Of a stretch of 64,000 bases of DNA, positions 2,895 to 63,413 are shown piece by piece; position 1 is the stretch's first letter; each line of letters starts with the position of its first letter. Where the stretch lies: positions 36,395 through 100,394 of the IMG/VR virus record IMGVR_UViG_3300009169_000001; one strand, 5' to 3'. This DNA is from a virus. Made by a program: the position numbers and the translations under genes. Below the pieces are notes generated by a model that was not told the DNA's origin, ran no database searches, and worked only from the letters and a program-made list of their open reading frames with translations.

Positions 2895-4199
2895 ATGGCG
2901 CTTCCAAGAATTTCACAGCAGCCCGTGCAGACCGATGCACTGGCGTGGTTCCCTCGAACTATGGGCCTACAGAAGCAGCTCACGGTCCAGTTCAAATTCG
3001 ATGACAAGCCGCTGCACTTGTACGCAGAGAAAGGGGCTCACATCGGTGTACCCCGTGGACTGTGCGAGCTGGTAGGCATTGATCACCGCGTACAGGGAAC
3101 CCCTAGTGTAATTAATTGCACTGTGCCCCCCAAGAACGATGAGCAGGTCTCGGTGCTGGCGAAAGCGGCAGCCCGACTGAAGGCCGGGAGATCGTTTGTG
3201 CTACAGGCGACCACCGGGTTCGGTAAGACTTACTGTGCGGCCAACCTGCTGTCGGTGGTGAACACCACCACCCTGATCGTGGTGACCAAGGAAGACATGA
3301 TGCTCCAGTGGCGCAAGGAGCTGCTGAAGTTCACCGATCTGACCGAGGATGAAATCGGCACGGCTCAGCAAGACCAGTGCGACTACAAGGGCAAGAAGGT
3401 GGTGCTGGGCATGATCCATTCGCTGGCCAAGAACAAGTACGGCACGGCGTTCAACAACTACTTCGGCTTCGTGATCTACGATGAGGTCCACCGTCTTGGA
3501 GCCGAGACATTCTCCAAGACCGCCGGGATGTTCCCCGCCAAGCTACGCCTTGGGCTCTCTGCGACCGTTGACCGGGTGGATGGTAAGCAGGACATCTTCA
3601 CGGCGCATATTGGCCCTGTGGGCGTACAGACGGCTGTGGTGCAGCTGCCGCCCAAGATCCTGATGAGGGAGACCGGGTACAAACCCTCGCGCAAGATCAA
3701 GATCGAGCCTGCCCGCATGATGGCCTTGTACAAAGACATGGGCCAGAACTACGCCCGCAATGCCATTATCGTGGAGTTCCTGCTGGCCAGCTACAAGAAG
3801 GGGCGCAACACCATCGTGTTCAGTGATCTGATCGGTGACCATCTGGACATCCTGCACCCCATGGCCCGGCACGCAGGGATACCGGCACACGATATGGCGT
3901 ACTACATCGGCGGCATGTCGGAGAAGGCCCGAGCCGATGCCAAGACCAAGCGCGTGCTGTTCGCCACCTACGCCATGACGGCGGAGGCCACGGACATCCC
4001 CCGGCTGGACACGGCGGTGTTTGCAACACCTCGGGCTAACATCACGCAGCCATTGGGGCGGATTCTTCGGGAGTTCCCCGGTAAGCCTCAGCCGGTGGTG
4101 CTGGATCTGGTCGATGGATTCTCGCCGATGCTCATGGGTTTCATGTCGAAAAGGCGTACGCAGTATTTTTCTTTGAAAGCAACGCTGCTAAGCATTTAA
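2895..4199 (+). CDS. superfamily 2 DNA helicase
   Basis: Walker A TTGFGKT, DEVH, LSAT, QPLGRILR motifs. Confidence 0.92.
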   Translation: MALPRISQQPVQTDALAWFPRTMGLQKQLTVQFKFDDKPLHLYAEKGAHIGVPRGLCELVGIDHRVQGTPSVINCTVPPKNDEQVSVLAKAAARLKAGRSFVLQATTGFGKTYCAANLLSVVNTTTLIVVTKEDMMLQWRKELLKFTDLTEDEIGTAQQDQCDYKGKKVVLGMIHSLAKNKYGTAFNNYFGFVIYDEVHRLGAETFSKTAGMFPAKLRLGLSATVDRVDGKQDIFTAHIGPVGVQTAVVQLPPKILMRETGYKPSRKIKIEPARMMALYKDMGQNYARNAIIVEFLLASYKKGRNTIVFSDLIGDHLDILHPMARHAGIPAHDMAYYIGGMSEKARADAKTKRVLFATYAMTAEATDIPRLDTAVFATPRANITQPLGRILREFPGKPQPVVLDLVDGFSPMLMGFMSKRRTQYFSLKATLLSI

Positions 4200-4248
4200 C
4201 AAACGTTAAGATGTAGGGTAGACTACCCCACCGACAAGGAGGGGCCCC

Positions 4249-4665
4249 ATGGCAGCTGACATCAAAGAATCACCATACCAACGATGGCACCGCAAGAACA
4301 AAGAGGATTTCAACAAACGTCGCCGGGAGCGTTACTCCGTAGACAAGAAGTACCGGAACAAACAGCTGGAGATGGCTCGCCGTCGCAGGCTGGCACAACC
4401 ACCCAAGGAGAAATCCGTGGATGAAGGCCTGACCACTTCGGAGGCAGGCCAGATGGTCGGGCGTAAGGCGCAGACCCTTCTCCTGTGGGAGAAGATCGGC
4501 CTGATCCCGGCACCGCTCAAGACACCGTTCCGACGGTACACCGAAGTACAGGTGAACCTGATGGCACTGCTGGCTGAGTATATGAACACCAACCGCGTCC
4601 GCCGTGCGAAGCATGAAGACGAGGAGCTGGATAAGTTGATCCAACACATTAGGGAGAAGTGGTGA
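4249..4665 (+). CDS. MerR-like HTH protein
   Basis: TTSEAGQMVGRKAQTLLLWEKIGLIP...RRYT is a MerR-type HTH. Confidence 0.7.
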   Translation: MAADIKESPYQRWHRKNKEDFNKRRRERYSVDKKYRNKQLEMARRRRLAQPPKEKSVDEGLTTSEAGQMVGRKAQTLLLWEKIGLIPAPLKTPFRRYTEVQVNLMALLAEYMNTNRVRRAKHEDEELDKLIQHIREKW

Positions 4666-5348
4666 TGGCTATTACCAAAGTGAGTAAAAACGCACCGTCT
4701 AACGCCCCGTCTGACGGCAAGCCCTCCGTAGTCGGCGGGTTCATGGCCAAGAAGCTGGCCGCGCTGCAAGCGGAGCTGGGCGTGGACCCGCTAGACGGCG
4801 TTCAGGAGGAGGCCTCTATCCCATGGGTGGAGGAGGACGTGGGCCCCGAACAAGAGCCGGGTGTCGTGGTGGGCTATGATTTCTCCCCGACGAAGGACAC
4901 CACCAGCACCACACCGTACACCATCGGCGAGGCCCTCAAGAAAGGCGAGAACCTGAAGAAGACCGCTGCGGGTCACGCGACCACCACCCTGCAGCACACC
5001 GTAGCTTCGACGGCTGCCGAAGACCCGGAAGAGGTTTTTGAGGAGCAGGTGCCTGCACCCCACCTTATGACAGCGGCCAGCCTTGCCAAGGTCGATATTG
5101 AGCTGGGCCGTACGATCAACACGGGCAATTACAGCAGCGCCCGGTTCTCGGTGCGCCTGACCATGCCGTGTGACCCGGAGCACCTCGACAGCACCTACCA
5201 GTTCGTGGAAGCATGGGTTTCTGATCGGGTCATCGCACTGGCGGCGCAGGTCTCGGCCCCCGCTAATCAGGATACGGGATCTGCTAAATCACCCGTCAGC
5301 TACTCTGCCAAATCACCCTTCAGCTACAGTGGCGAGGAAGACCTCTGA
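4665..5348 (+). CDS. hypothetical protein
   Basis: Acidic low-complexity N-terminus, C-terminal GRTINTGNYSSAR domain, short tandem duplication SAKSPxSY. Confidence 0.6.
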   Translation: MAITKVSKNAPSNAPSDGKPSVVGGFMAKKLAALQAELGVDPLDGVQEEASIPWVEEDVGPEQEPGVVVGYDFSPTKDTTSTTPYTIGEALKKGENLKKTAAGHATTTLQHTVASTAAEDPEEVFEEQVPAPHLMTAASLAKVDIELGRTINTGNYSSARFSVRLTMPCDPEHLDSTYQFVEAWVSDRVIALAAQVSAPANQDTGSAKSPVSYSAKSPFSYSGEEDL

Positions 5349-6391: not shown

Positions 6392-6728
6392 CAACAAGAC
6401 TGGGCACGGGCGTAAGGCGGAGAAGCGTCTGGCCCGTGAGCATGGTGCAAGGCTAACACCGGGGTCCGGGGCATTCTCGGGCCACAAGTCCGACATGACA
6501 CGTGAAGGAGCGGGGGTAAAGTTGCAGATCGAAGTGAAGACGACCAACAACGACAGCATTGGTATCAAGCTGAAGTGGCTGGACAAAATAACCCAAGAGG
6601 CCAAGGGCACTAACTCGCTGCCGATTCTGATGGTGTCCTTCGTCACGGACAACGGCGCAGCCCGGCCCAATGGTGACTGGGTGATGATGCCCAAGGCCCT
6701 GTTTGACTTACTGGATGGACTCGAATGA
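6360..6728 (+). CDS. PD-(D/E)xK nuclease, Hjc-type resolvase-like
   Basis: G..AE, PGSGA, KSD, IEVK motifs. Confidence 0.7.
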   Translation: MANPYLRRSANNKTGHGRKAEKRLAREHGARLTPGSGAFSGHKSDMTREGAGVKLQIEVKTTNNDSIGIKLKWLDKITQEAKGTNSLPILMVSFVTDNGAARPNGDWVMMPKALFDLLDGLE

Positions 6729-7618: not shown

Positions 7619-8079
7619 CCTACCCGGTACTGGGCATCGATCCTTCAACCTTCACCGGGTACGCCCTACTCTGGGAGACGGGTGTGGTGCTGGCCTCAGA
7701 GATCAATTTCAAGAAGCTCTCCGGGATACCCCGCGCCGAGGCGTTCATGGACCACACCATGCGGCTGGTAGAGCACCATAAACCCTGCGCTGTGTTCATT
7801 GAAGGGTACGGGTTTGGCAACGCCCACACCCTCGCGATTCTGGTTGAAATAGGTACCGCGATCAGGTTAGCCTTGCATGGCTGTGGCATGACCTACACCG
7901 AGGTGGCTCCGACCTCCCTGAAGAAGTTTGCGACCGGGAAGGGGAACTCCCAAAAGGATCAGGTCATGCTGGCAGTCTACAAAAAATGGGGGTTTACCCC
8001 CGAGACCAACAACATCGCCGACGCCTATGTGCTGGCCAAGATGGCGGCCAATGCAGAGGGCTGGGCAGACCCCGAGTGA
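7615..8079 (+). CDS. RuvC-like Holliday junction resolvase
   Basis: LGIDPS, FIEGY, PTSLKKFATGKG, ADA motifs. Confidence 0.85.
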   Translation: MTYPVLGIDPSTFTGYALLWETGVVLASEINFKKLSGIPRAEAFMDHTMRLVEHHKPCAVFIEGYGFGNAHTLAILVEIGTAIRLALHGCGMTYTEVAPTSLKKFATGKGNSQKDQVMLAVYKKWGFTPETNNIADAYVLAKMAANAEGWADPE

Positions 8080-8097
8080 AATTAACTGCACCAATGT

Positions 8098-8126
8098 TTG
8101 ACAAACTAATATACGCCTGCCATAAT
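8098..8126 (+). promoter_or_regulatory. sigma70-like promoter
   Basis: TTGACA-17 bp-CATAAT with extended -10 TG; a 16-bp palindrome copy lies just upstream (8076-8091). Confidence 0.75.
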
Positions 8127-8160
8127 ACTCGCAGGGTCAATCACTAAAGGAGTACGGAAA

Positions 8161-9063
8161 ATGACTGCTACCGCATCAATGCTGAAACAGAAGAAAAAGG
8201 CCGTAAAGGAACAGGCTTCTGAGGAAGGCCTGCTGCTGAAGGTCGCCAATGAGATCCAATCGATGGAGCAGGCTGAGGCGGCGGATAATCTTGCCGTGCT
8301 GCTTGAAAGTGAAGGCCTCAATGACTTTAAACTGGGCGGCGTGCTCGCCCTGTATCAGGCCCACTCTGATTGGTGGGATGGCTGTGAGACCTTCAAGGAA
8401 TACGTCAACACCAAGGTGGCCCTGCACTACCGCAAGGTGATGTATCTGATCGAGATCCACGTCTGCCTCGTGGATAACAAGATCGAGTGGGACACCGTCA
8501 AGTCCATAGGCTGGACTAAGCTGAAGGAGCTGGTCAAGGTGCTCACCCCCGACAACGTCGAGGATTGGGTGGCCAAGGCCAAGGTGATGACCACCCTGCA
8601 GCTGAAGGATGCGGTCAAGGCCCATCTGGCCAGCCTGAACGGCGGGGAGGAAGATCCGGGCATTACCAGTGACGTGACCACCATGACCTTCAAAGTCCAC
8701 GCTGACCAGAAGGAGCAGATCCGTTTGGCGCTGGACAAGGCCAAGGCTGAGCTGAACACTGAGGTGGACACCGTGGCGCTGGAAGGCCTCTGCACTGCCT
8801 ATCTGGGCGGGACCTTCGCGATCGAGTCCACCGGTGGTTCACTGGTCGATGCGATCAAGGGCCACAGTCTGGAAGAGATCAATGCGGCGGTCGAGATTGT
8901 GTTCCCCGACGCAGTGATCGAAGGTGCGGTATCGGACGGATTCGCCGCTGCGACCGGCCCGGCTCCAACCCTGTTGCAGACCCTGATCGCCAACGGATCG
9001 GACGCGGTACTGGCTGCCTTTGAAGAGGCTTTCCCCGAGATGGAGTTGACTCTCGCGGTGTAA
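8161..9063 (+). CDS. hypothetical protein, possibly DNA-binding
   Basis: 300 aa monocistronic ORF with its own promoter, AAGGAG RBS and terminator; IGWTKLKEL helical motif. Confidence 0.6.
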   Translation: MTATASMLKQKKKAVKEQASEEGLLLKVANEIQSMEQAEAADNLAVLLESEGLNDFKLGGVLALYQAHSDWWDGCETFKEYVNTKVALHYRKVMYLIEIHVCLVDNKIEWDTVKSIGWTKLKELVKVLTPDNVEDWVAKAKVMTTLQLKDAVKAHLASLNGGEEDPGITSDVTTMTFKVHADQKEQIRLALDKAKAELNTEVDTVALEGLCTAYLGGTFAIESTGGSLVDAIKGHSLEEINAAVEIVFPDAVIEGAVSDGFAAATGPAPTLLQTLIANGSDAVLAAFEEAFPEMELTLAV

Positions 9064-9106
9064 CTTTCGGTGCGGGAAGTACCTTCATGGGGAAGAACCG
9101 ATGACA

Positions 9107-9130
9107 GCCGGGAAAGACCGGCGCTTTTTT
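9107..9130 (+). terminator. intrinsic terminator
   Basis: GCCGG-loop-CCGGC stem followed by a T tract. Confidence 0.55.
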
Positions 9131-9310
9131 CACGCTCTATAAGGAGATCACAATGAGCGCCAATTCCATCATTTTTTATGGAGGCCTGATCCTGACCTTC
9201 ATCGCCCCGACGGATATGAATTTCGCCCTGCTCTTCGGCTTCGGCTGCATGTGCTTCGCCGGGTACCGTTTCCTGCAGCGCGAAAAGAAACGCCTGATTT
9301 GAAAAAATAC

Positions 9311-9340
9311 TTGCACTGACCCCCACATAGTAGTACTATG
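9311..9340 (+). promoter_or_regulatory. sigma70-like promoter with CATAGT-N3-ACTATG operator
   Basis: TTGCAC-17-TACTAT overlapping CATAGTAGTACTATG (9326-9340). Confidence 0.65.
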
Positions 9341-9377
9341 TCAGTGGAAGTTTGATTCACATTGGGAGGAGCCCGCC

Positions 9378-9826: not shown

Positions 9827-9836
9827 AAAAAAGTAC

Positions 9837-9865
9837 TTGACCCCATAGTAGTACTATGAGACGAT
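9837..9865 (+). promoter_or_regulatory. sigma70-like promoter with operator
   Basis: TTGACC-17-GACGAT; spacer contains CATAGTAGTACTATG (9844-9858). Confidence 0.6.
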
Positions 9866-9904
9866 AATGGTGTCGGGGAAGGGTCCCCAATCTGGAAGGA
9901 GCCA

Positions 9905-12079: not shown

Positions 12080-13925
12080 GGGGCAGGCGATTCTACAAAG
12101 TCTGCAGGCCCGCCTCCCGGCGGTGTTGGCGACCATGCAGACCAAGAGCCAGAAGGTCGAGTTCCTGCAGCGCTTTCACGACCACGTCGCCAATGATGAG
12201 TGGGACAAGCTATCCGAGATCGTTGAGACCAAGGCGACCCGGACGGTGGGAATCAAGGAGTTCATCGAGAGCCGGGACTTCCTGAACATGCGGGACGTGC
12301 TGTACCCGATCGTGATGGATGAGATCCAGCAGATGAACGGCGGCGACTACGTGGAGCTGGTGCTGACCGGGGCCATCGGGACAGGCAAGACGACCATCGC
12401 CCTGATCACCACCGCCTACCAGCTTTATCTGCTCGCCCAGTACGACTATCCCCAGAGAAAATTCGGCCTAGACCCGGCCTCCGAGATCGTGTTCATCTTC
12501 CAGTCGCTCAACGCCAAGCTGGCCAAAGACGTGGACTACGCCCGCTTCAAAGCCATGATCGACGGTAGCCCATGGTTCCAGCAGCACTTCCGTTACGACA
12601 AGACCATCGAGTCGGAGCTACAGTTTCCGAATCGCATTATCGTCAAGCCGGTGTCCGGGGCCGAGACTGCGGCGATAGGCCAGAACGTGTTCGGTGGCGT
12701 GATCGACGAATTGAACTTCATGGCCAAGATCGAGGGATCGAAGCGATCCGTGGATGGCGGCAACTACGATCAGGCGACCTCGCTGTACAACAGCATCGCC
12801 CGACGCCGGAAGTCCCGCTTCATGAAGCAGGGCAAGATGCCCGGCATCCTGTGTCTGGTATCGTCTGTCCGCTACCCCGGACAGTTCACCGACACCAAGA
12901 TCGAGGAGCAGCGCCGGGACATCGACCGCCACGGGTCCAGCACCATCTTCGTCTACAACAAGACCACATGGGGCATCAAGCCGCCGGGGACTTTCACCGG
13001 GTCATGGTTCGAGGTGTTCACCGGCAGCGCCAGCCGTTCGCCCCGGATCCTCCAGCCCAACGAGGTTCTGCTCCCGGAGGATCAGCGACTGGTGATCTCA
13101 ATCCCGGAGGAGTACCGGACCGAGTTCGAGAAGGACATGATGAACGCCCTGCGCGACATCGCCGGTGTGGCGACGCTGGCCATGCACCCGTACATCATCG
13201 TTACCGAGAAGATCACCGAGTGCGCCGACCCGAAGCTCCCGGTCCTGCTCAGCCGGAACGAGGTGGACTTCGTGGACACCAAGCTCAAGATCTATCCGGA
13301 GCGGATCACGAACCCGACCTACCCACGCTTCGCTCACGTGGACTTGGGCCTGACCGGGGACAGCGCCGGTGTGGTCATTGGGCACGTGGTGGGCTTCATG
13401 GATTGTGACCGGGGAGACCACATCGAGCAGGCCCCCAAGATTGTGATCGATGCGATACTGGAGGTGTCACCGCCGAGGAACGGGGAGATCCTGTTCTGGA
13501 AGATCCGGGACGTGTTCTACGCCCTGAAGAAATTCGGGATGAACATCAAGTGGATCACCTTCGACAGCTACCAGTCCGCTGACTCCCTGCAGCTGCTGAG
13601 GCAGGCGGGGTTCATCGCCGACATTCAGTCCATGGACAAGAGCATTGATCCGTACGAGTACACCAAGTCCGCGATCTACGATGGCCGCCTGAAATTCAAC
13701 CCGCACCCTAAGCTGCAGCGCGAGCTGGCCTCACTGGAGCTGGACACCAAGCGCGGCAAGGTGGACCACCCGCCCGGTGGCTCCAAAGACTGCTCCGATG
13801 CGCTGGCTGGCGTGGTCTACGGCCTGACCATGCGCCGAGAGGTCTGGGCGATTTTTGGCGTAAGGCCGCTGAACATGCCGACCAAGGTCAAGGCCGTGCT
13901 GGCAGCCCAGAAGCCCGACAAGTAG
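12069..13925 (+). CDS. terminase large subunit
   Basis: GAIGTGKT Walker A, VIDE Walker B, HVDLG and KDCSDA nuclease motifs. Confidence 0.9.
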   Translation: MTPKGQAILQSLQARLPAVLATMQTKSQKVEFLQRFHDHVANDEWDKLSEIVETKATRTVGIKEFIESRDFLNMRDVLYPIVMDEIQQMNGGDYVELVLTGAIGTGKTTIALITTAYQLYLLAQYDYPQRKFGLDPASEIVFIFQSLNAKLAKDVDYARFKAMIDGSPWFQQHFRYDKTIESELQFPNRIIVKPVSGAETAAIGQNVFGGVIDELNFMAKIEGSKRSVDGGNYDQATSLYNSIARRRKSRFMKQGKMPGILCLVSSVRYPGQFTDTKIEEQRRDIDRHGSSTIFVYNKTTWGIKPPGTFTGSWFEVFTGSASRSPRILQPNEVLLPEDQRLVISIPEEYRTEFEKDMMNALRDIAGVATLAMHPYIIVTEKITECADPKLPVLLSRNEVDFVDTKLKIYPERITNPTYPRFAHVDLGLTGDSAGVVIGHVVGFMDCDRGDHIEQAPKIVIDAILEVSPPRNGEILFWKIRDVFYALKKFGMNIKWITFDSYQSADSLQLLRQAGFIADIQSMDKSIDPYEYTKSAIYDGRLKFNPHPKLQRELASLELDTKRGKVDHPPGGSKDCSDALAGVVYGLTMRREVWAIFGVRPLNMPTKVKAVLAAQKPDK

Positions 13926-14004
13926 TGCACTTAATTGCACCCTAGCGATTGACAGGTACTTCGCCCATCCGCACTCTTTAGGTAGGGACGGGGGAGGGCT
14001 TGTT

Positions 14005-14965: not shown

Positions 14966-15207
14966 TGAGCTACAGCACGGTGTACAAGCACAAGGTGTCC
15001 AAGAAAAAGGCGGCGTCGGGTGGCTACCCGGATGGTTGGGACTGGGCCATCTACACGACCAAGTCGAACACCGACCATCACCTGTTCCTGAGGGAGTTCC
15101 ATGGGGGTAAGACTTACCGTGATCTGAAGTGGGCAACGACCCATCTGGTCTGCGGGATGTTCCCGATCCCAGTCCCCATGGTAAACGCGGCGGAGGAGGT
15201 CCAGTGA
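14965..15207 (+). CDS. small hypothetical protein
   Basis: TGATG coupling. Confidence 0.5.
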   Translation: MSYSTVYKHKVSKKKAASGGYPDGWDWAIYTTKSNTDHHLFLREFHGGKTYRDLKWATTHLVCGMFPIPVPMVNAAEEVQ

Positions 15208-15620
15208 AATTAACTGCAATACAGGGTAAGAATTCTTACTGCGGTCCAGCGGCGATCGCGGCCATCGTCGGCATCTCTACCGATGCAGCGGCCAAGGCCA
15301 TCCGGGAGACCGGGTACAAGCGCAAGTCAGTTCGCAGGCTCCACCCGGAGGAGCTGGAGTGGGCACTGGCCAAGCTGGGGTACGCTGTCCACTACCAGCA
15401 GATGTCCCCTTCCGATACGCCGACCTTGGCCAAGTGGATCCGCGACCGCGAGGACCGTGCGGCGGTCAACATCGTGTACGTGACCGGGCACTACGCCGTG
15501 GTCTCTGGCAATAAGTACATCGACAACCATACCAAGGAGGCGGTGTGGATCAGCAAAGCACCGGGCCGCAGGAAGCGCGTGAAGGGTGTGCTCACCGTGG
15601 AGAAAAAAGCATGCAAGTGA
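15204..15620 (+). CDS. papain-like/C39-type cysteine peptidase-like protein
   Basis: Q...YCGPAAIA, GHY and D catalytic pattern; GTG start after GGAGG. Confidence 0.6.
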   Translation: MKLTAIQGKNSYCGPAAIAAIVGISTDAAAKAIRETGYKRKSVRRLHPEELEWALAKLGYAVHYQQMSPSDTPTLAKWIRDREDRAAVNIVYVTGHYAVVSGNKYIDNHTKEAVWISKAPGRRKRVKGVLTVEKKACK

Positions 15621-19045: not shown

Positions 19046-19431
19046 AGTGCGCATGTTGCGGGGAAGAGTGCAAAGCCGTCATCGAGGACCACGGTATCGG
19101 GCCCTACGAGTTCCAAGGGGCCAAGGGCGTGGACCGGAAGCAGGTGCTCGTCAGCGATTGCTGCGGCGACGCCGTACTCGATGACAACGGTGCCGAATGT
19201 GACGTGGAGGTCCTCGATGATCGAGAGGACGCCCTGATCGAGGACTACGACGACTGGCGTAACGACCGGTGAGCAGACACAATAAGCCCCGGTGCAAGAA
19301 GAAAATTCTGATGGGCTGGAAGAGCCACCGACGGTGTGCGGTTAGCGTGATGGAGGGGAGCGAGTACTGCTGCCACCATCAGCCGACACTGATTTATTTC
19401 AATGACATTAATTGCACTAAGGAGAAGGACA

Positions 19432-23626: not shown

Positions 23627-24079
23627 ATGATCAGGAACATCCCCTTCAAATTCGGCTTTGGTAACACCGTGTACATTTACGGAGGCCCCTACCGCGCCCG
23701 CCCCACTAACACCTACAACATTTGCATGGCGGCGGAGATCGATGAGCCCGCCGACATCCGGGTTGAGACCCGTGACTTTTCCGTCCCTGACACCGAGGAG
23801 CTGCTGGCGGCTCTGAAGGGGGGCCTGCTGGCACTGGGTGCCCGGAGGCAGGTGTTTGTCGGGTGCATGGGCGGCATAGGCCGGACCGGGCTGTACCTTG
23901 CCGCCATGGCCAAGGTGCTGGGAGAGAAGTACCCGGTGATCTACGTCCGGGAGAACTACCTGTCCCATGCGGTGGAGACTAAGGAGCAGATGCGGTTTAT
24001 CAACGAGCTGGATGTCAGTTCATTGAAATTAACTGCACTGGCAGCCAAGGTCGGACACGCACTTTTATTCTGGAAGTGA
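23627..24079 (+). CDS. Cys-based (CX5R) phosphatase, dual-specificity/PTP-like
   Basis: DFSVP, VGCMGGIGRTG, AVETKEQ. Confidence 0.85.
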   Translation: MIRNIPFKFGFGNTVYIYGGPYRARPTNTYNICMAAEIDEPADIRVETRDFSVPDTEELLAALKGGLLALGARRQVFVGCMGGIGRTGLYLAAMAKVLGEKYPVIYVRENYLSHAVETKEQMRFINELDVSSLKLTALAAKVGHALLFWK

Positions 24080-26663: not shown

Positions 26664-29036
26664 ATGCTGGTATTCTGGGGCACCGATGATCCCAAGATCA
26701 TCCATAAAGAAATACCCGCCCTCGTAAAGTACGACGGACCCAAATCTCTTTCCACCTCCTACAACAGGCCCTCGGTTGAACCGGGCAGCCTGTTGGTTGC
26801 CATGGGGTCAAAGCGTCTGGCGCAGCTGGGTGAGGAGGCGCTCATACCCAAGAACCGGACCGTAGCGTGGTGCCGGTACCCGCGCTTGTTCACGGCACCC
26901 GAGGGTGGTCGCATCATGGTGACCTATGGCCCCTCGGCTAAGGAGTACTCCTACTCCAGCTACGTGCACTTCCGAGCTGACGTGCACCTTGCTGATCGGT
27001 TCATGCGGACCGGCACCTTCTCCCCGGTCCCCGGTAAGTACGAGTATGTCTCCAGCTTCGCTAGTGCAATTAAGTGCATTAGTGATGAGTACCAGAAGAC
27101 CGGCAAGCCTGTGGAGGTGGCGCTGGATCTGGAGACGCTAGGCCTCAATCCTTATGACCCCGACGCGTACATCATCACGATCCAGCTGAGCTACGAGGTG
27201 GGTCACTCCATGGTGATTGCGTTCCACAGCAAGGCGGAGGCCGACCAAGCTCTGAGCGAGTTCAATCCTTTATGGCTGGAGCTGTCATGGCTGCTGGACA
27301 CCCCCATGGTGTCGCTGCGCGGGGCCAACTTCAAGTACGACCTGATCTGGCTGGCCGTCAAGGCCCAGCTGGAGTGCACCAACTTCAAGTTCGATACTAT
27401 GCTCGTGGGCAGCTTGCTCGATGAGAACCGGCACAACTCCCTGAACACGCACGCCAAGTGGTACCTCCCTGATCTGGGTGGGTACGACGACAAGTTCGAT
27501 CTGGAACACGACAAGAGCCGGATGGATCTGGCGCTGGAGCAGGACCCTGCCGGGTTCCTGACCTATGCCGGGGGAGACACCGACGCCTGCCTGCAGGTAA
27601 GCAAGCTGATGAAGGCCGAGCTGATACAGAAGCCGGGGCTGGCCAACTTCTACATCAACGTCCTGCACCCGGCAGCACGGGCCTATGAGTTGGTGGAACG
27701 CACCGGCCTGCTGGTAGACGTGGACTACTACATGGAGCTGGAGTACGAGATTCTGGAGGAGATGGAGATGCTCTCCCGCCGGGGCTTGGCGCTGCTTCCG
27801 CATTCGCTGTTGTACAAGCACCGCAAGAATCTATCCCTGAGCAAGCCGAGCCTGATCATCGACTTCCTGTTCACACCGGCTGGGCTCAACCTGAAGCCGA
27901 AGAAATTCACCGAGACCACTGAGGCACCGGCGACCTCCGCTGACCACATGGCCATGTTCATCAACCATCCGAAGGCCGGGCCTTTCGTCAAGATATTGGA
28001 CGCGTACGCTGACTGCTCCAAGACCCTGAGCACGTATGTGCTGAAGCGGGACAAGCACGGTAACCCCACGTCCGGGTTTTTGCAGCACCTGCGCATCGAT
28101 CGCCGCTACCACCCGACGCACTTCCTGCACAACAGCGGGGATGGTAGCGGGGGCACCAACACCGGGCGGATCTCGGTGCGCGACCCCGCCATGCAGACCG
28201 TGCCCAAGCACACCAAGTGGGCCAAGCGCTTGCGCCGGGCGTTCATCGCACCGCCGGGCATGCTTGTCATGGGCAACGACTACTCACAGGGCGAGCTGAA
28301 GATCGCGGCGTGTCTGGCCAATGAGACCACCATGATCAACGCCTACCGGCAGGGGCTGGACTTGCACGCGGTGACCGGGGCCCGGATGGCCAACCTCAAC
28401 TTCAACGACTTCCTGAAGCTGAATGACACCAAGCCCGACCTCTTTGCCATGATCCGGCAGCGGGCCAAGGCGGGGAACTTCGGGTTTCTGTACGGCATGG
28501 GTGCGGCGGGATTCGTGGAGTACGCCCTCAACTCATACGGTGTGAAGGTTACCGAAGCAGAGGCCGAGGAGGCCCGGCAGGCGTTTTTCTCCGCCTATCC
28601 AATGCTTGACCCATGGCACAAGGAGTACAAGGCCTACGCGTTCCAGCACCGCATAATCCACTCACCCTTGGGCCGTATCCGCCACCTGCCGATGATCCGA
28701 TCCACGTTCTCAGAAGTGTCTTCAAAGGAGGAGCGCCGGGCGGTCAACGCCCCGGTCCAGTCAACGCTGTCGGATATGTCCCTGTGGGCCACTTCGATCC
28801 TGCACCAGCAGGGGCTGATGAAGACCCAGCCGGTGGTCGCCATGATCCACGATCAGCTGGTGAGCTATGTCCCTGAAGACGACTGGGAGGCCTCAGCCGT
28901 GCGGATGATGGGCATCATGGAGAACCTGCCCTTCGAGAAGGTGGGCTGGAAGCCTCAACTGCAGTTTACCGTGGACTGTGAAGTCGGCCCCAACCTCGGG
29001 GACCTGAAGAAGCAGTCTTTTAAGAAGGCCGCTTAG
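26664..29036 (+). CDS. family A DNA polymerase with 3'-5' exonuclease
   Basis: Exo motifs DLET, ANFKYD, YAGGD; TGRIS, DYSQGELK, RQRAKAGNFGFLYG, NAPVQS, IHDQ. Confidence 0.95.
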   Translation: MLVFWGTDDPKIIHKEIPALVKYDGPKSLSTSYNRPSVEPGSLLVAMGSKRLAQLGEEALIPKNRTVAWCRYPRLFTAPEGGRIMVTYGPSAKEYSYSSYVHFRADVHLADRFMRTGTFSPVPGKYEYVSSFASAIKCISDEYQKTGKPVEVALDLETLGLNPYDPDAYIITIQLSYEVGHSMVIAFHSKAEADQALSEFNPLWLELSWLLDTPMVSLRGANFKYDLIWLAVKAQLECTNFKFDTMLVGSLLDENRHNSLNTHAKWYLPDLGGYDDKFDLEHDKSRMDLALEQDPAGFLTYAGGDTDACLQVSKLMKAELIQKPGLANFYINVLHPAARAYELVERTGLLVDVDYYMELEYEILEEMEMLSRRGLALLPHSLLYKHRKNLSLSKPSLIIDFLFTPAGLNLKPKKFTETTEAPATSADHMAMFINHPKAGPFVKILDAYADCSKTLSTYVLKRDKHGNPTSGFLQHLRIDRRYHPTHFLHNSGDGSGGTNTGRISVRDPAMQTVPKHTKWAKRLRRAFIAPPGMLVMGNDYSQGELKIAACLANETTMINAYRQGLDLHAVTGARMANLNFNDFLKLNDTKPDLFAMIRQRAKAGNFGFLYGMGAAGFVEYALNSYGVKVTEAEAEEARQAFFSAYPMLDPWHKEYKAYAFQHRIIHSPLGRIRHLPMIRSTFSEVSSKEERRAVNAPVQSTLSDMSLWATSILHQQGLMKTQPVVAMIHDQLVSYVPEDDWEASAVRMMGIMENLPFEKVGWKPQLQFTVDCEVGPNLGDLKKQSFKKAA

Positions 29037-43477: not shown

Positions 43478-44275
43478 ATGTCCCTGTTTTCCATCCTAAA
43501 ATTCAACCCGTACCACGACCCGAAGGATGGCCGGTTCACCACCGGCGACGGGGGTGGTAAGGGCGTTGTTACTACTTCAGATGTGAACGCAGCCGCCAAG
43601 GCGCTGGCTGAGGGGCGGAAGGTACGCCTGACCAGCACCAAGCAGGTATCGACCCTGCTGGCCAAATTGCGAGAGATCGTCGCCGACGCCAAGGCCAAGG
43701 GCAAAGACGCCCCCAATTACAACTTGTGCAGCGTGTCCGTGAAGGGCACCAACCTCTTCTGTGCCGAGAACAAGGGCCTTGCCCGTGTGCAGATGCCGCA
43801 GCTCTCTGGCAAGCCCCTGCCGGGCAGTAAGGGCGACAAGCTGCCCAAGGATAAGGACGGCGGCATCGATCTTACTGGTAAGTTCCGGGAGCACCTTGAG
43901 AAGGCGCTAGGCGTCAAGGTGTCGGATGAGGATGAGAAGGCCTCGTACCTGAAAGCCACACAGAACGAACTGAACGGCGTGAAGGTGGCGGGCATGTCCG
44001 GTGCCTTGGAGTCCGGCACCCTGCCGGATGCCAGACTGTTCGTGTCCAAGGACAACTACGTCGTGGACGGGCACCACCGCTGGGCGGCCAATGTTGGCGC
44101 TGACGCGTCTGATGGGAAGCTGGGGGACCTCACGATGAAGGTGGCGCGGGTAGACATGGACATCATCACCCTGCTGTACGAGTCCAATAAATTCGCCAAG
44201 GACTGGGGCCTGCCCCAGATGAGTGCCGCCAACGTGAAGAAGACCACGGGCTGCGGGTGCGCTACGTGCAGTTAA
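43478..44275 (+). CDS. tagged ParB/Srx-like domain protein
   Basis: SILKFNPYHDPKDGRF tag; LKATQ, VSKDNYVVDGHHRWAA; promoter TTGACA(43422)-17-TAGCAT. Confidence 0.75.
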   Translation: MSLFSILKFNPYHDPKDGRFTTGDGGGKGVVTTSDVNAAAKALAEGRKVRLTSTKQVSTLLAKLREIVADAKAKGKDAPNYNLCSVSVKGTNLFCAENKGLARVQMPQLSGKPLPGSKGDKLPKDKDGGIDLTGKFREHLEKALGVKVSDEDEKASYLKATQNELNGVKVAGMSGALESGTLPDARLFVSKDNYVVDGHHRWAANVGADASDGKLGDLTMKVARVDMDIITLLYESNKFAKDWGLPQMSAANVKKTTGCGCATCS

Positions 44276-45207
44276 TTGCACTGCTGAAGTTCAACAAGCA
44301 CCACGAGCCTGCAGGCACTGAGATAGGCGGCCAGTTTGCTTCCGTTGAGGCGTGGCGTCTGCAGCCGGGGATCTACCAGAAAAACGGCGTGTGGGTCCGC
44401 AACGGCAAGACGGTAACCGGCGCTGACGCAGCGACGTTGAAGCGCATGCGCGTGCCCCCAGCGTGGAAGGACGTCAAGGTCAACCCCAACCCTGATGCCA
44501 AGCTGCAGGTGATCGGCAAGGACGTGAAGGGCCGAACCCAGTACCTGTACTCCGCCGCTCACAGTGAGCAGGCCGCCGCTGAGAAGTTTGCCCGGATCAA
44601 GGCGTTCCACGATGCGCTGCCCAACCTGCGCAACCACATGACGCGGGACATCCATGACCCCAACCAGCCTGCAGCTGTGCGGGAGTCCGCTCTGGTGCTG
44701 CGCCTGATCGATAAAACGACGTTCCGGGTGGGCTCGAATGCGGAAACCCATGGGGTTAAGAAGGCCTATGGGGCCACGACTTTGCGGGGCGAGCATGTTA
44801 CAATACTGGGTAACAAGGTCGCGTTTTCCTTCGTTGGAAAGAAGGGCGTCCAGATAGACCAAACGATCACCGATCCGGTACTGGCGAAGGAGCTGCGAGC
44901 CCGGAAGCGCGAGGCCAAGAACGGCCCACTGTTCAAGGTAACCGACAGCCGCCTGCGCCAATACATCAAAGATGAGGGCTTCGGGGGTTTTTCGCCGAAG
45001 GACTTCAGGACATACCACGCGACCTCGATGGCGCTGGCGCTGGTGCGCAAGACCCCTATGCCGGGGAACCGTACGCAGGCCAAGAAGGCCAGAAAGGAAG
45101 TTGCGACCAAGGTGTCTACCAAGCTGGGCAACTCGCCCGCCATGGCACTGGCATCGTACATCAGCCCCGAGGTGTTCTCGGACTGGGAGGATCTACTCTA
45201 TGACTGA
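44266..45207 (+). CDS. tagged DNA topoisomerase IB
   Basis: VPPAW, GKDVKGRTQYLY, FRVG, GATTL, F.GKKG, KDFRT, LGN, SYI (catalytic R-K-R-N-Y); start may be 44257 or 44266. Confidence 0.88.
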   Translation: MQLIALLKFNKHHEPAGTEIGGQFASVEAWRLQPGIYQKNGVWVRNGKTVTGADAATLKRMRVPPAWKDVKVNPNPDAKLQVIGKDVKGRTQYLYSAAHSEQAAAEKFARIKAFHDALPNLRNHMTRDIHDPNQPAAVRESALVLRLIDKTTFRVGSNAETHGVKKAYGATTLRGEHVTILGNKVAFSFVGKKGVQIDQTITDPVLAKELRARKREAKNGPLFKVTDSRLRQYIKDEGFGGFSPKDFRTYHATSMALALVRKTPMPGNRTQAKKARKEVATKVSTKLGNSPAMALASYISPEVFSDWEDLLYD

Positions 45208-46283: not shown

Positions 46284-46284
46284 C

Positions 46285-47808: not shown

Positions 47809-49102
47809 GGCTGAGCGGATTGTCCGGGACTTCACGTCCTTTGACACCGAGGCCAAAAACCTATTGCAGTTAATTTCACAGCTGCACACGAGTCGTGTGT
47901 CGGGCTACGGCTACACCGCTGAGGCCGAGATACTGGGCGTGGAGTACTACGCCATCAATGAGCAGCTGGATGTGCGCACCTGCCCTGTGTGCGAGATGAT
48001 GCACGGCAGGGTGTTCCCGGTTTCCGAGGCTAGACGCTTGCTCGACGATATCCTCTTCGAGGAGGATCCCGAGATCATCAAGACCAAGCAGCCGTGGCCT
48101 AGCCAGAAGCAGGCCGCCGTAGCATCAATGCAATTAATGTCACCGGAAGAATTGATCGGTAAGGGGTGGCACATCCCACCCTTCCACCCGTGGTGCAGGG
48201 GCATACTGGTCCACGTGAAGGATGTGCCCGACAAGATCATGCCTGTGGAAGTGGCGGCCCTGCAGGAAGTACTGTCTTCACCGGTACACGCTGGGCGTCC
48301 GATCGAGGTTACGGATTTTGAGGCTCTCAAGCAGATCTCCACCCTAGACTTCAGCATTCAAAACCCCAATGGGAAGATCCCGGAGCTGCGCCCCGAGCAC
48401 TTGGCCACGTGGAACAAGGTGATGGGAGACGTCACCCCCGCCGCGCTGTACAACGTGGTCAACAACGGATTCAAAGGTGCGTTGGCGGTGAACGGCGGGG
48501 AGTTTACCCTGAGCATAGGGGGGGACAACATCCTCATGTCTGCCCGGATGTGGGATGACGTGAAGGGTACCGTGGGGCGCAGCATACTGGCGCACCTAGA
48601 GCGCACTTTTGTTCGCGAGCGGGATGGCGTGCTCAATGTAGAGCATGATTACTTCAAGATTGCTAACCGGCACGCCCGCAGCGGGTACGGCAAGAATTTC
48701 ATGTCCGAGTCCTTTCGCCTCTACGAAGAGATGGGCGTCGAGGCGGTAGATGTAGATGCCAACATCGAGGTGGGGGCCTACGCGTGGGCCAAGTACGGCT
48801 TCAAGCCTAAAAACCTCAAGGTGTCCAAGGCCCTCTCCGATAATTTGAGAACCACCCTGAGAGCGATGTCTTGGCGCTTGTCCCCGGATGTTGTGGACGC
48901 CGTGCAGGAGGTGATCACCAAGATCCAGACCGATCCCACGGCCTTGTGGGTCCTGTCTGACATCGGGTTCATCACTGAAGGTGAGCCCCTTGCCAAGAGC
49001 CTGCTGTATCGTAAATCGTGGCTGGGTACGATTAGACTGGATGATGATGTAGCCATGAATCGGCTATGGGCCTACGTAGGGAGACCTGAAAATGTCAAAT
49101 GA
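47795..49102 (+). CDS. MuF/gp7-like C-terminal domain + C-terminal GNAT-like effector
   Basis: LDVRTCPVC..MHG and PPFHPWCRG MuF motifs; ARSGYG..GAYAWAKYGF; TTG start uncertain. Confidence 0.8.
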   Translation: MLIAKAERIVRDFTSFDTEAKNLLQLISQLHTSRVSGYGYTAEAEILGVEYYAINEQLDVRTCPVCEMMHGRVFPVSEARRLLDDILFEEDPEIIKTKQPWPSQKQAAVASMQLMSPEELIGKGWHIPPFHPWCRGILVHVKDVPDKIMPVEVAALQEVLSSPVHAGRPIEVTDFEALKQISTLDFSIQNPNGKIPELRPEHLATWNKVMGDVTPAALYNVVNNGFKGALAVNGGEFTLSIGGDNILMSARMWDDVKGTVGRSILAHLERTFVRERDGVLNVEHDYFKIANRHARSGYGKNFMSESFRLYEEMGVEAVDVDANIEVGAYAWAKYGFKPKNLKVSKALSDNLRTTLRAMSWRLSPDVVDAVQEVITKIQTDPTALWVLSDIGFITEGEPLAKSLLYRKSWLGTIRLDDDVAMNRLWAYVGRPENVK

Positions 49103-49318: not shown

Positions 49319-49918
49319 ATGTCCGAATTAAAGCTGGCCTCCGAAGAGAAGCGCATCGTCTGGGCCGAGGTCTATGTGCCTAACGTACCCGACTCGGACG
49401 GTGATTTCATGGACCACGAAGGTGTGGAGAAGGCCGCCTACCAGTTCATGATGGACCTGAACCTCAAGAAGATCGATGTGCAGCACTCCAACGACCTAGT
49501 GCCGGGGGCCAGTGTCGTCGAGTCGTTTATCGCCCGCAAAGGGGATCCGGATTTCATCGAAGGATCGTGGGTGGTAGGGGTGCACATTCCAGATGACGCA
49601 ACATGGTCCCAGATCAAGAAGGGCGAGATTAACGGCTTCAGCCTCGAAGCACTGGTCAAGGGCGAGCACGTCGATATCGAGGTGGAGATCCCACCAGTGC
49701 TCACCGGAAGGACGTCAAAATCTGAAGGTTTCGATAGTCACGAGCACACGTTTTACGTTACGTACGACCCGACGGGCAATCTTGTGGGTGGGCGCACGGA
49801 TGTGGTTGGCGGGCATTCTCATATTATCAAGCGGGGAACTCTTACCGAAGTGGCTTCGGGGCACGACCACCGATTCTCCTTCATCGAGGGACTAGGGCCC
49901 CTGTACGGACCCCAGTGA
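49319..49918 (+). CDS. prohead protease, XkdF-like
   Basis: VY.P..PDSDGDFM, IDVQH, GSWVVG, IKKGEINGFS; promoter TTGACA(49265)-17-CAGAAT. Confidence 0.8.
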   Translation: MSELKLASEEKRIVWAEVYVPNVPDSDGDFMDHEGVEKAAYQFMMDLNLKKIDVQHSNDLVPGASVVESFIARKGDPDFIEGSWVVGVHIPDDATWSQIKKGEINGFSLEALVKGEHVDIEVEIPPVLTGRTSKSEGFDSHEHTFYVTYDPTGNLVGGRTDVVGGHSHIIKRGTLTEVASGHDHRFSFIEGLGPLYGPQ

Positions 49919-49988
49919 AACCAATTGCACTGAAAAAAAGTGCTAGAAAAGTTTCTTCGGAGGCTTTTCAGGGTGTTAGTTTGGCACC

Positions 49989-56163: not shown

Positions 56164-56792
56164 ATGGCCGTAGTGATTGCAGATCTGCTTCCCGAAGCAG
56201 TGCTAGTTGAAGTTGGAAAAGGCAGTATAGAAGTGCGGGGGATACCGCTCGATCAGCTGGTGCCATTAATTGCACGGCACGGCGAAGGGCTCTCCAAGTT
56301 TCTCGTGGGGGATAAGTTCAACGCGGAGGCCATGGCCCTGCACGCCCCGGAGATCGTAGTGGATCTGTTGGCCGCAGCTTGTGATGCCAAGGGGCAGGAA
56401 GCTGACCTACGCAGGCTGCCTGCAGCGGTGCAGATCGAGATTTTGCTGACCACATGGAAGTTGTCGGTGCCTGATGTAAAAAAGCTCCGAAGCTCGTTGT
56501 TGGGGCTAATCAAGTCTCTAAACCTAAGCGACGCGCAAAAGGCGAAGTTGATTCCTTTGAACGGGCCATCGGAAACTCTCTCGCCATCGCCGTTGAGCGA
56601 CTCATCGCCAACGGACATCGACTCAGAGACATCCGAGGCTACACCCTAAGGCAGATCGATGCCTTTAACGTCCTGAGCTTTAATAGGGGTGCGGAGGCTG
56701 ATAAAGATGTAGCATACATAAACAGGCTTGCTCAGCACGCTGATGACAAGCAATTCAAAAAGTTTATAGAGGCTACGCACGACGATGGCTGA
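56164..56792 (+). CDS. tail assembly chaperone G (56164-56649) and -1 frameshift product GT (to 56792)
   Basis: In-phase slippery A AAA AAG at 56478-56484; -1 frame stays open (…LIANGHRLRDIRGYTLRQI…) to TGA 56790-56792, overlapping the TMP start. Confidence 0.8.
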
Positions 56793-61118: not shown

Positions 61119-62135
61119 ATGTCAATCCAATCAAGTGAACTCGTGTGGCGCACGTCTCTGGAGGTTTCCGACGCTGGAACCAACGGTGGGGCGATGTCCA
61201 ACGTAACCAGCACCAGCACGGTGAAGAATAATATCTTCCCCGACATATCGCAGGCCCAGCGCCTCGCAGGTGTAACCCAGCATCGCAAGATGTTCATTCT
61301 GGTGAACAATTCAGAGACCAACGGTAACGACGCGGGGCTGGATCTGATCACGCCCCGTGTGTTCGTTGAGACCAAGACTCCGGGAGATGACATGGTGCTC
61401 TTCTTCGCGGGCACCCAGACCAACATCCAGAGCGCCATCACCGGCGCAGAGCAGAAATACGGGGCGGGTCTGCTGAACGCGCCAGTATCCCCGGCGGCCA
61501 CCACCATCGTGGTGAACGTGGAGGACTGGGATGCGGGTGCCATCTTCGTGGCTGGCATGACCATACGGATCTCGGACAAGACGTCGGTAGACGCGGTCCC
61601 CGGTAATGCTGAGTACCACGTGATAGACACCGGCGGCGTGTCAGTTAACGTGGACCAAATCACCCTGACACTCGCTACCCCGTTGGCCTTTGGCTACAGC
61701 GCCGGAGCCAAGGTGGCCTCGGTGTATATGCCTGCCACCGTCTCAGCGAGCGTGAACACCCTGAACAACACAGGATCAGGCACGTTCAACATCGCGGGTG
61801 TCACTACCGACAACACCGGCACCATCTATCAGCAATGGAGGATCACCTTCACCTCCGCTACCGCCTACAACGTGGAAGGCCTCAACGGTGTGGGTTCAGT
61901 GGGCTCCGGCAACGTGGGGTCCGACTTCCTGTCGGCCACGAATCCTATCACCGGCGGGAAGTACTTCACGCTGCTGTCCACCCAATTCGGCGGCACCTTC
62001 ACCGCTGCGGACCAGATCACCTTCTACACCGAGCCCGCAGCGATCCCGATCTGGTACAAGCGTATTGTCCCAGCGGGTGCCAGCTCACTATCGGCTAACA
62101 AGATCATCGTTGCAGTAGACGGAGAGAGTTCATAA
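61119..62135 (+). CDS. tail/baseplate protein
   Basis: NGG.M, NNIFPD, RKMF, PIWYKRIVPAG. Confidence 0.65.
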   Translation: MSIQSSELVWRTSLEVSDAGTNGGAMSNVTSTSTVKNNIFPDISQAQRLAGVTQHRKMFILVNNSETNGNDAGLDLITPRVFVETKTPGDDMVLFFAGTQTNIQSAITGAEQKYGAGLLNAPVSPAATTIVVNVEDWDAGAIFVAGMTIRISDKTSVDAVPGNAEYHVIDTGGVSVNVDQITLTLATPLAFGYSAGAKVASVYMPATVSASVNTLNNTGSGTFNIAGVTTDNTGTIYQQWRITFTSATAYNVEGLNGVGSVGSGNVGSDFLSATNPITGGKYFTLLSTQFGGTFTAADQITFYTEPAAIPIWYKRIVPAGASSLSANKIIVAVDGESS

Positions 62136-62138
62136 CCC

Positions 62139-63413
62139 ATGGCTGGAGTGCAACAGACTTCCCTTTCGGTTACGTTTGGCGCTGACGCATTTAGTTCGTT
62201 CAGTGACTCTGGCGCGGTTATCCTTGAGCGCTCTAACCGGGAGCCCGAAGAAGACAATATCGTGTTCTTCCGGGCTCACGGGATCAGCACCCACACCATG
62301 AACAGCACCTCGGGGTTCGTGAGCAAGGAGAACAAGAACCTGCGGCGCTTCACCTCGGAGTTTGTGACCTTTACCGGGACCTCGATCGCGGCTATACGCT
62401 ACCCGAATGCGGAAAATGTCACGATCACCCGACAGGGTGTTTTCTTCGACGCGAACGGTAAGACGGTACCGGCCCCGAATCTCACCTACGACGCAGCGAA
62501 ACGGTCGATCGTAACCCCAGCACCAGTGCACGGAATTGCACTGGTAGAGTATCGGGCCCCCTACGAGCTGTGGCGTGCGACGTTCAGCGGTAACTGCCCC
62601 AGCGTGGAGCCCGTGTCGCCGCCTGTGGATACGTCACTGGGCGCACCTGACGATGACACCGCCTACACCGGTAGGCAGCCTATGGTGGTCTCAGCGTGGC
62701 TGGGAGGCAAACTGGAAGCGTCTCTGCAGCTGACCCCACCGGCCTGCGTGTACACTACCGATGAGGCTTACACTGCGGTACGCCGCATGGACGCCAAGCT
62801 GCCCAAGCTGAAGATCGAGGAGGACCCTGATGATAGGACCCGTTTGGTAGGCGGGGAGACCCAGATCCCCGGACACCTGAGGGGGCGCTGTGGCTTGAGG
62901 GTGTACCCCGGACGGTCCGGTATCCTGCTGGAAGCCTCCAATGGGTCACTGCTCCCCTACCCCTCGACGAAGTACGACATCCTGATCACGGAGACGCTTA
63001 CGTTCAATGGGTCTTCCAGTGCTTCACTGAGCTACCAGCCCACCGGGACCAGTGTCGCCGTTACGTCTGTAGGCAACTTCACGGACCAATGGGACCGCAC
63101 CTTCGCACCAGATATCCTCCAAGGCGGGGACAACGTTACCTCCGTGAACTGGGTCTCGAAGAACACCTACAATAGCCCGGTGAAGCGCAGGCTGTACGCC
63201 GACGAAATAGCGATCGCCAACCTGTTTGGGGTAGCGGTCCCCTGCTACGGTGCGGTTGAAGTGTCCTATGTCACCTCGTACTGGAAAGCGCACTTTTTCT
63301 TCGATTACAATTACTCAGAGCAGCGGTTTGAGCCTGCCTCGTTCATCGCCAAGGATTCAAAGCAGACTGCGAGTCTGACTCTGCAAGGTCCGACCGTTAA
63401 AGGATTTTATTGA
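62139..63413 (+). CDS. putative tail protein
   Basis: 424 aa beta-rich ORF in the tail operon. Confidence 0.55.
   Translation: MAGVQQTSLSVTFGADAFSSFSDSGAVILERSNREPEEDNIVFFRAHGISTHTMNSTSGFVSKENKNLRRFTSEFVTFTGTSIAAIRYPNAENVTITRQGVFFDANGKTVPAPNLTYDAAKRSIVTPAPVHGIALVEYRAPYELWRATFSGNCPSVEPVSPPVDTSLGAPDDDTAYTGRQPMVVSAWLGGKLEASLQLTPPACVYTTDEAYTAVRRMDAKLPKLKIEEDPDDRTRLVGGETQIPGHLRGRCGLRVYPGRSGILLEASNGSLLPYPSTKYDILITETLTFNGSSSASLSYQPTGTSVAVTSVGNFTDQWDRTFAPDILQGGDNVTSVNWVSKNTYNSPVKRRLYADEIAIANLFGVAVPCYGAVEVSYVTSYWKAHFFFDYNYSEQRFEPASFIAKDSKQTASLTLQGPTVKGFY

Follow-up and report, generated by a model that had tools for sequence, protein, structure and literature searches.

The phage contig IMGVR_UViG_3300009169_000001 from IMG/VR carries 25 evenly spaced copies of a 16-bp quasi-palindrome, which are probably the dispersed operators of a ParB/KorB-type protein, in a form that would be new. 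This reading was developed from comparisons of sequences and predicted structures and concerns a window of 64,000 nucleotides (bases 36395 to 100394 of the 100,394-bp contig) together with the rest of the genome; positions given below are those of the window unless genome positions are indicated. The protein that reads the array is, on balance, likely to be the phage's own product of the gene at 8161-9063. Searches of the open-access literature by phage names, motif sequences, and keywords returned no description of the array, and the repeat goes unmentioned in the papers on Stenotrophomonas phages DLP3 and DLP5 and on the Rhodobacter phages.

The palindrome array in the phage genome

A preliminary description of the window had listed 17 copies of the palindrome, and all of them were found at their positions, with one to three mismatches to GTGCAATTAATTGCAC. 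Dinucleotide-preserving shuffles led us to expect a mean of 0.16 copies in the window (maximum, 2). Two additional weak matches were not borne out: the one at 22450 scored 4.0 bits, and the one at 43394 fell outside the top 45. The whole genome contains 25 copies and no sequence with exactly four mismatches. Scored with a weight matrix, the copies reached 19.7 to 31.2 bits and the best other place 11.4 bits, a gap that is circular by construction since the matrix was built from the same 25 copies. Including the flanks, the symmetry reaches about 20 bp (yA-GTGCAATTAATTGCAC-TG). The copies are separated by a mean gap of 4.0 kb, in agreement with the spread of about 4 kb described earlier, and the coefficient of variation of the gaps was 0.44 compared to 0.95 under random placement; none of 20,000 random-placement simulations was as even (P < 5e-5).

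Gene interiors account for 87% of the genome sequence and fully contain 16 of the 25 copies. The earlier statement that the copies are mostly embedded in coding sequence thus stands as far as the majority is concerned; it does not capture the nine copies outside gene interiors, which are more than expected (binomial P = 0.003), or the enrichment at gene junctions, with about half of the copies no more than 100 bp from the start or end of a gene. Both open reading frames of the motif are used (VQLIA-type and GAINCT-type peptides), and where the third frame is read, the preceding gene stops at the central TAA or at the TGA of a GTGAAA variant. The codons required are used sparingly in this genome, as had been noted for the first three: TTA makes up 3% of the leucine codons, ATT 20% of the isoleucine codons, GCA 16% of the alanine codons, and AAT 23% of the asparagine codons. 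When synonymous codons were shuffled within genes, the check proposed in the preliminary description, a mean of only 0.97 of the 16 intragenic copies was kept (maximum, 4; 300 shuffles). These results support the view that the array is under constraint at the level of the DNA and not of the protein or RNA. At two places upstream of the window (genome positions 8177 and 29425), the sites lie in the near-identical peptide contexts PAGALNFTGL and PTGAINFTGL, and in these two cases, a recurring protein motif may have brought the DNA motif along.

The two halves of the site are both degenerate, with 24 mismatches in the left and 16 in the right half. This independent degeneracy and the symmetry fit the binding of a dimeric protein, as had been suggested from the window alone. 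The consensus is self-complementary and several copies are located at gene ends, features that would also be expected of an RNA hairpin or DNA cruciform acting, for example, as a processing or termination signal. The stem would comprise just 6 AU-rich bp, however, and the arms are not fully complementary in any of the 25 copies, nor were changes in one arm ever compensated in the other; we therefore regard a hairpin or cruciform as effectively excluded and as the least credible of the explanations considered. The lack of perfect palindromes is itself significant (0 of 25 versus 3.9 expected; P = 0.015). In the vibriophage SIO-2, 24 of 26 sites carry exactly one mismatch to TGCAAT-NN-ATTGCA and one site is perfect, compared to 8.7 expected (P = 4e-4); no such depletion was detected in DLP5 and the Rhodobacter phage RcZahn. 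The sites may be tuned to submaximal affinity, or perfect palindromes may be counterselected.

Arrays in related phages

The portal, terminase, polymerase, and capsid proteins of the phage are 33 to 65% identical to those of Stenotrophomonas phages DLP5, DLP3, and Summit and likewise to those of Rhodobacter phage RcZahn, Rhizobium phage RHph_TM16 (TM16), and the SIO-2 vibriophage group. A megablast search with 8 kb of the genome against phage records gave no match, and a portal-based locus search in IMG/VR returned no relatives. Arrays of the type TGCAA-N4-TTGCA, a common core in which the two central bases are free, were present in eight distant relatives, with a site every 2 to 4 kb. We counted 38 copies in DLP5 (TGCAAT-CA/TG-ATTGCA), 27 in RcZahn, 26 in TM16 (mostly TGCAAC-AT-ATTGCA), 26 in SIO-2 despite a guanine-plus-cytosine (GC) content of 45%, 48 in Rhodobacter phage RcTiptonus (TGCAATCGATTGCA), 54 in Rhizobium phage L338C (TGCAAC-NN-GTTGCA), 25 in Aeromonas phage HJ05, and 30 in Pseudomonas phage UF_RH6, a Samunavirus (TGCAAR-CG-YTTGCA). 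A scan of IMG/VR for near-consensus sites returned many contigs of 40 to 67% GC with several copies each, many of which encode relatives of the genes of this phage at 30 to 55% identity. The arrays are kept in 80- to 110-kb siphophages of Alpha- and Gammaproteobacteria.

Of five complete genomes tested, four had significantly even spacing, and only weak orientation biases were observed, in TM16 and RcTiptonus. Between DLP5 and DLP3, 17 of 18 sites are orthologous, and the sites are 97.9% identical compared to 84.6% for the 75-bp flanks (Fisher P = 5e-11); the sites are therefore under purifying selection as DNA. Over longer distances, the positions of the sites turn over and their number and evenness persist. 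Two positions are exceptions to this turnover: the junction of the portal and protease genes, which carries a site in five of six genomes, and the promoter of the 8161-9063 family gene.

The core of the motif is almost unchanged among phages whose proteins are only 30 to 50% identical, as would be expected if a conserved host protein, such as a nucleoid-associated protein or a global regulator, bound the sites and was exploited by the phages. The hosts, however, span Vibrio, Aeromonas, Pseudomonas, Stenotrophomonas, Rhizobium, and Rhodobacter, and to our knowledge no regulator common to all of them matches the motif. Moreover, sites of the form TGCAA-N4-TTGCA or TGCAAY-NN-RTTGCA were completely absent from five phages that have related terminases and lack the 8161-9063 family (Gordonia phage Jumbo, Thermus phage phiLo, Maribacter phage Molly_2, Rhizobium phage RHph_TM3_3_6, and Yersinia phage GN1). 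We thus consider a host protein a very unlikely reader.

The candidate reader and its genomic setting

Of the four proteins named as candidates in the preliminary description, the product of 8161-9063 is favored: it is a core gene, matched by tblastn in all four complete relatives compared, its predicted fold is of the ParB/KorB type, and a site lies at its own promoter. A profile of 46 homologues found exactly one copy of the family in each of eight genomes or loci searched, and a later search added one copy in UF_RH6; in six of these genomes or loci, the family gene adjoins an annotated or matched RuvC-like gene. An 11-kb IMG/VR locus (L105) with 21 sites, about one per 500 bp, contains a second, divergent paralogue, and a paralogue is also carried by another locus (L139). 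The names given to two homologues, "putative single-stranded DNA binding protein" for UF_RH6 orf94 and "putative ribonuclease E/G family protein" for TM16 EVB27_031, were unsupported in our searches. Homologues in other cultured phages are gp067 of DLP5, gp66 of RcZahn, and VPEG_00074 of SIO-2. The DLP3 homologue, gp62, is not listed in the virion proteomics of that phage, which says little because the preparation consisted of DNA-free ghost particles.

The promoter of 8161-9063 is the best σ70-like match within positions 1 to 20000 of the window, and the 16-mer at 8076-8091 ends 6 bp before its −35 element; the protein therefore probably regulates itself. A terminator-like hairpin directly follows the gene, which thus forms a one-gene unit, and site, promoter, and terminator together have the layout of a self-regulated regulator. 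Based on annotated gene starts (automatic start estimates blurred the test), a site was present 61 to 131 bp upstream of the family start codon in seven of eight cultured phages, with a similar distance in UF_RH6, and in five of these phages it sits 7 to 9 bp before a −35-like hexamer. Among loci from metagenomes and metagenome-assembled genomes, six of nine have a site 55 to 88 bp upstream of the family gene. Sites 7 to 12 bp upstream of strong promoters were also observed more widely in L338C (10 of 27 sites) and in SIO-2 (4 of 29).

In an AlphaFold2 (AF2) model of the protein, the mean predicted local distance difference test (pLDDT) score was 80 and exceeded 90 over residues 30 to 160. Residues 34 to 160, approximately, are modeled as a helix-turn-helix DNA-binding domain of the ParB/Spo0J/Noc/KorB type, in which R91, K92, and Y95 of the presumed recognition helix are invariant. 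VIA-align matched this domain to Spo0J-parS (4umk; Z = 9.4, root mean square deviation of 3.0, 110 aligned residues), Caulobacter ParB-parS (6t1f; Z = 9.0), Noc-NBS (6y93; Z = 8.8, 112 of 116 residues), and KorB-OB (1r71; Z = 6.6), scores under the level at which the tool cautions that matches of helical domains can be generic; unrelated chains reached Z values of 4 at most, with the exception of Raf1. Foldseek gave probabilities of up to 0.95 with E values near 1, which are not significant. Taken together, the model provides moderate evidence for a ParB-type DNA-binding domain. Only about 33 residues precede this domain in the model, and the Pfam ParBc family (ParB/Srx CTPase) gave no hit to the protein itself, to 46 members of its family, or to five longer homologues; with the CTPase domain looked for and not found, the protein is therefore not a member of the ParB/KorB family. 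A conserved C-terminal block (TFKVHxDQK...ALExIC) has a strand-helix-helix pattern and could represent a dimerizing ribbon-helix-helix; a Pfam scan of the block from nine phages returned no ribbon-helix-helix family.

An upstream site shows that a gene is regulated and not that its product is the reader. A different phage protein, encoded at 22416-22952 or 4249-4665, could read the sites, and 8161-9063 would then be one of the regulated genes. The former is a small zinc-ribbon/winged-helix-like protein with weak Rpc34 (winged-helix) and Lar zinc-ribbon hits, and the latter has MerR helix-turn-helix hits. These Pfam hits are below or near threshold, however, and both genes were matched by tblastn only in DLP5 among the four complete relatives, all of which have the array. 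We regard such a reader as unlikely, if the most serious of the alternatives. The remaining two proteins that had been named fared no better: 415-714 had no hits at all, and 43478-44275, described as ParB-like, had no Pfam ParB hit, only phrog_2859 (unassigned function) and a subthreshold Mrr_cat match, and was unmatched in relatives that share the array.

Alternatively, a plasmid prophage could use the sites as centromeres for partition by a canonical ParABS-type system. DLP5 is maintained as a phagemid, DLP3 and DLP5 carry ParB-domain proteins (PMC5834331, PMC7326821), and a 16-bp palindrome resembles parS in form. Against the parS-like partition considered earlier, neither a ParB N-terminal domain nor ParA was detected in about 40 Pfam-scanned proteins (about 29 from the window) of the 109 called genes. 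The one ATPase encoded in the conserved module belongs to the classical AAA+ proteins (PF00004). The ParB-like gene beside the terminase in the relatives has no tblastn match at that position here, and 25 evenly spread sites are not what partition needs. In this canonical form, partition is highly improbable.

Several observations weigh against 8161-9063 as the reader, or against the way in which we propose that it acts. Rubisco factor Raf1 scored Z values of 8 to 9, as high as the ParB-type matches, and no link to ParB or KorB was detected at the sequence level, since comparisons with PDB and Pfam (single-sequence, profile, and member by member) gave chance-level matches only. As any clade-specific gene would accompany the array, the joint occurrence of the two is confounded by common ancestry and is consistent with the proposal without being decisive. 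SIO-2 has no site at the promoter of its family gene. In the phage studied here, the candidate reader's own promoter is the only recognizable promoter with an abutting site, and a different palindrome (CATAGTAGTACTATG-like) is found at the early small-gene promoters. The conserved site at the portal-protease junction is not explained by self-regulation. Finally, without a ParB/Srx CTPase domain, a KorB-like long-range mechanism is not simply transferable to this protein.

Table 1. Positions of the candidate reader, its expression signals, and the palindrome copies in the window
Feature	Position	Strand	Remarks
Candidate reader	8161..9063	+	300 amino acids; phrog_17202; no Pfam hit
Promoter	8098..8126	+	TTGACA, 17 nt, CATAAT, extended −10; drives 8161-9063
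Terminator-like hairpin	9107..9122	+	Just 3′ of 8161-9063
Site GTGTAATTAATTGCAC	3106..3121		Inside SF2 helicase gene 2895-4199
Site GTGAAATTAACTGCAC	8076..8091		TGA is the stop of RuvC-like gene 7522-8079; 6 bp before the −35 of the 8161-9063 promoter
Site	13925..13940		Abuts stop codon of large terminase gene 12069-13925
Site	15204..15219		TGA ends open reading frame (ORF) 14848-15207
Site	19402..19417		Intergenic; directly upstream of ribosome-binding site and ATG
Site	24023..24038		Near 3′ end of gene 23627-24079; relatives' counterparts annotated as tyrosine phosphatases
Site	27064..27079		Inside gene 26664-29036; matches relatives' annotated DNA polymerase genes
Site	31474..31489		Inside 757-amino-acid ORF with ART-PolyVal domain
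Site	34744..34759		Inside 688-amino-acid ORF 33550-35616
Site	36751..36766		Inside 662-amino-acid ORF with DUF3626
Site	44266..44281		Central TAA is the stop of 43457-44275; overlaps topoisomerase IB gene start
Site	47864..47879		Near 5′ end of ORF 47795-49102 (minor head/MuF-like)
Site	48128..48143		Second copy within ORF 47795-49102
Site	49915..49930		TGA ends gene 49217-49918; matches relatives' annotated prohead protease genes
Site	53672..53687		Codons 4 to 9 of gene 53662-54093
Site	56260..56275		Inside ORF 56164-56649
Site GTGCACGGAATTGCAC	62526..62541		Weakest in the window; inside ORF 62139-63413

The first 123 bases of the contig are identical to the last 123 (window positions 63878 to 64000). 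The assembly is therefore either circular or terminally redundant, and the unique genome comprises about 100,271 bp after removal of this end repeat. It has a GC content of 58%, and essentially all long ORFs with coding-like GC at third codon positions are on the plus strand. Besides 8161-9063, the ORFs matched in all four complete relatives encode helicases, primase, RecA, resolvases, terminase, polymerase, portal, protease, capsid, a PPDK-like kinase, and phosphatases. The kinase (PPDK_N plus PEP-utilizers mobile domain) lies at 20387-25876 with two genes whose counterparts are annotated as tyrosine phosphatases and with a 377-amino-acid protein without assigned function; all are kept in all relatives, and sugar-modifying genes are additionally present in relatives. 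This region may constitute a DNA hypermodification pathway. In the relatives, at most one gene lies between the portal and prohead protease genes; here the two are about 18 kb apart. The intervening segment (31078-47301) includes giant ORFs with ART-PolyVal and DUF3626 domains, a type IB topoisomerase gene (44257-45207), and a zeta-toxin-like kinase domain (46285-47301). The second, unrelated palindrome mentioned above is 15 bp long and occurs seven times (9326, 9844, 10396, 14659, 16622, 17253, and 19613). At least three copies (16622, 17253, and 19613) overlap the spacer and −10 element of strong σ70-like promoters in the small-gene region, and the copy at 14659 adjoins two divergent promoters. 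This second palindrome probably serves another regulator as its operator.

The gene content bears on a further explanation, in which an enzyme would act on the 16-bp palindrome. This enzyme could be the phage topoisomerase IB or a site-specific nickase or recombinase, or the palindrome could be where a DNA-modifying machine enters. DLP3 DNA resists 15 restriction enzymes (PMC7326821), and the DNA of this clade is therefore probably modified; the PPDK-like kinase, the phosphatases, and, in relatives, the sugar-modifying genes are conserved, and the topoisomerase IB gene starts at a site. On the other hand, 25 double-strand cuts at the palindromes would fragment the genome, and the fixed position upstream of a −35 element in many lineages argues for a transcription-type role. 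The topoisomerase IB ORF is unmatched in complete relatives that share the array, and we rejected this enzyme as a universal reader. An enzyme target of any of these kinds is decidedly unlikely.

Proposed role and comparison with known systems

We hypothesize that a dimer of the 300-amino-acid protein encoded at 8161-9063 docks at each of the 25 palindromes, with the ParB/KorB-type helix-turn-helix of each subunit reading one TGCA(A) element. These elements lie 10 bp, or one helical turn, apart and would therefore face the same side of the helix; the center between them is AT rich, and its two middle bases vary freely among phages. At its own promoter, the protein would repress or tune expression. 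The other copies would form a lattice of about 4 kb, kept even inside genes against codon preference, and the bound lattice would serve a genome-wide task, most likely either KorB-like silencing or long-range transcriptional control, or the bridging and organizing of the replicating phage chromosome. The CTPase clamp is absent, and the long-range mode therefore cannot be the sliding of KorB; plausible forms would be bridging or oligomerization by way of the C-terminal part, or a roadblock to transcription, which runs in a single direction. Our confidence in any single downstream function of the lattice is much lower than that in the identity of the reader. It is possible, though doubtful, that a CTPase-less ParB-domain protein and an even lattice of sites in coding DNA make up a new virus-encoded chromosome-wide system that organizes, silences, or self-marks the phage chromosome and in which the spacing itself is selected.

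If the proposal is correct, a large and widespread group of phages, with DLP5/DLP3, RcZahn, RcTiptonus, SIO-2-like vibriophages, L338C, and UF_RH6 as cultured members, keeps a regular lattice of sites for one protein across the entire chromosome and pays for it with rare codons inside essential genes. It would also provide a function for the phrog_17202 family, which is now unannotated or misannotated ("ribonuclease E/G," "single-stranded DNA binding protein").

Two systems with dispersed sites that had been suggested as models differ from the array. The matS sites of MatP, with the consensus GTGACRNYGTCAC, are confined to one macrodomain; the array differs in sequence and spacing and covers the whole genome evenly. 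The stoperators of cluster A mycobacteriophages (L5 gp71) comprise some 20 to 30 copies of a repressor site in genomes whose genes point mostly in one direction, and a number of these phages persist as prophages outside the host chromosome. Each stoperator is an asymmetric 13-mer that follows the direction of transcription, occupies a short intergenic gap, and is bound by the immunity repressor. The phage sites, in contrast, are quasi-palindromic and mostly intragenic, and they are conserved across hosts of different classes, unlike fast-evolving immunity specificities. In the linear phage-plasmid N15, a ParB-family protein binds inverted repeats scattered in the genome and affects gene expression, with only four sopC sites and a full SopA/SopB partition pair.

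ParB-parS and Noc-NBS gave the best structural matches to the modeled domain; their sites are 14- to 16-bp palindromes that are read by dimers, and many copies can lie within genes. The array differs from them in its sequence and in its even cover of the whole genome as opposed to clustering near the origin, and neither a CTPase domain in the candidate reader nor a ParA (among the roughly 40 scanned proteins) was found. KorB and its OB operators on the IncP plasmid RK2 are likewise a 16-bp palindromic operator dispersed over a whole replicon (PMC11790492). Promoter-proximal OB operators lie 4 to 10 bp upstream of promoters (PMC11790492), and the phage sites closest to a −35 element do so at 6 to 9 bp, with other copies being promoter distal in both cases. 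The predicted helix-turn-helix of the candidate reader, which aligns with the KorB domain-OB complex, would be a further likeness. The differences are the missing ParB/Srx CTPase clamp and, as far as the scanned proteins go, the lack of an identified KorA-like partner. RK2 carries 12 OB operators, whereas the phage arrays consist of 25 to 54 evenly spaced, mostly intragenic sites of unrelated sequence on a virus. Should the proposed reader hold, the question would be how a nonsliding protein acts genome-wide and why even spacing is needed, and the array would represent a virus counterpart of the plasmid KorB/ParB systems minus the CTP clamp.

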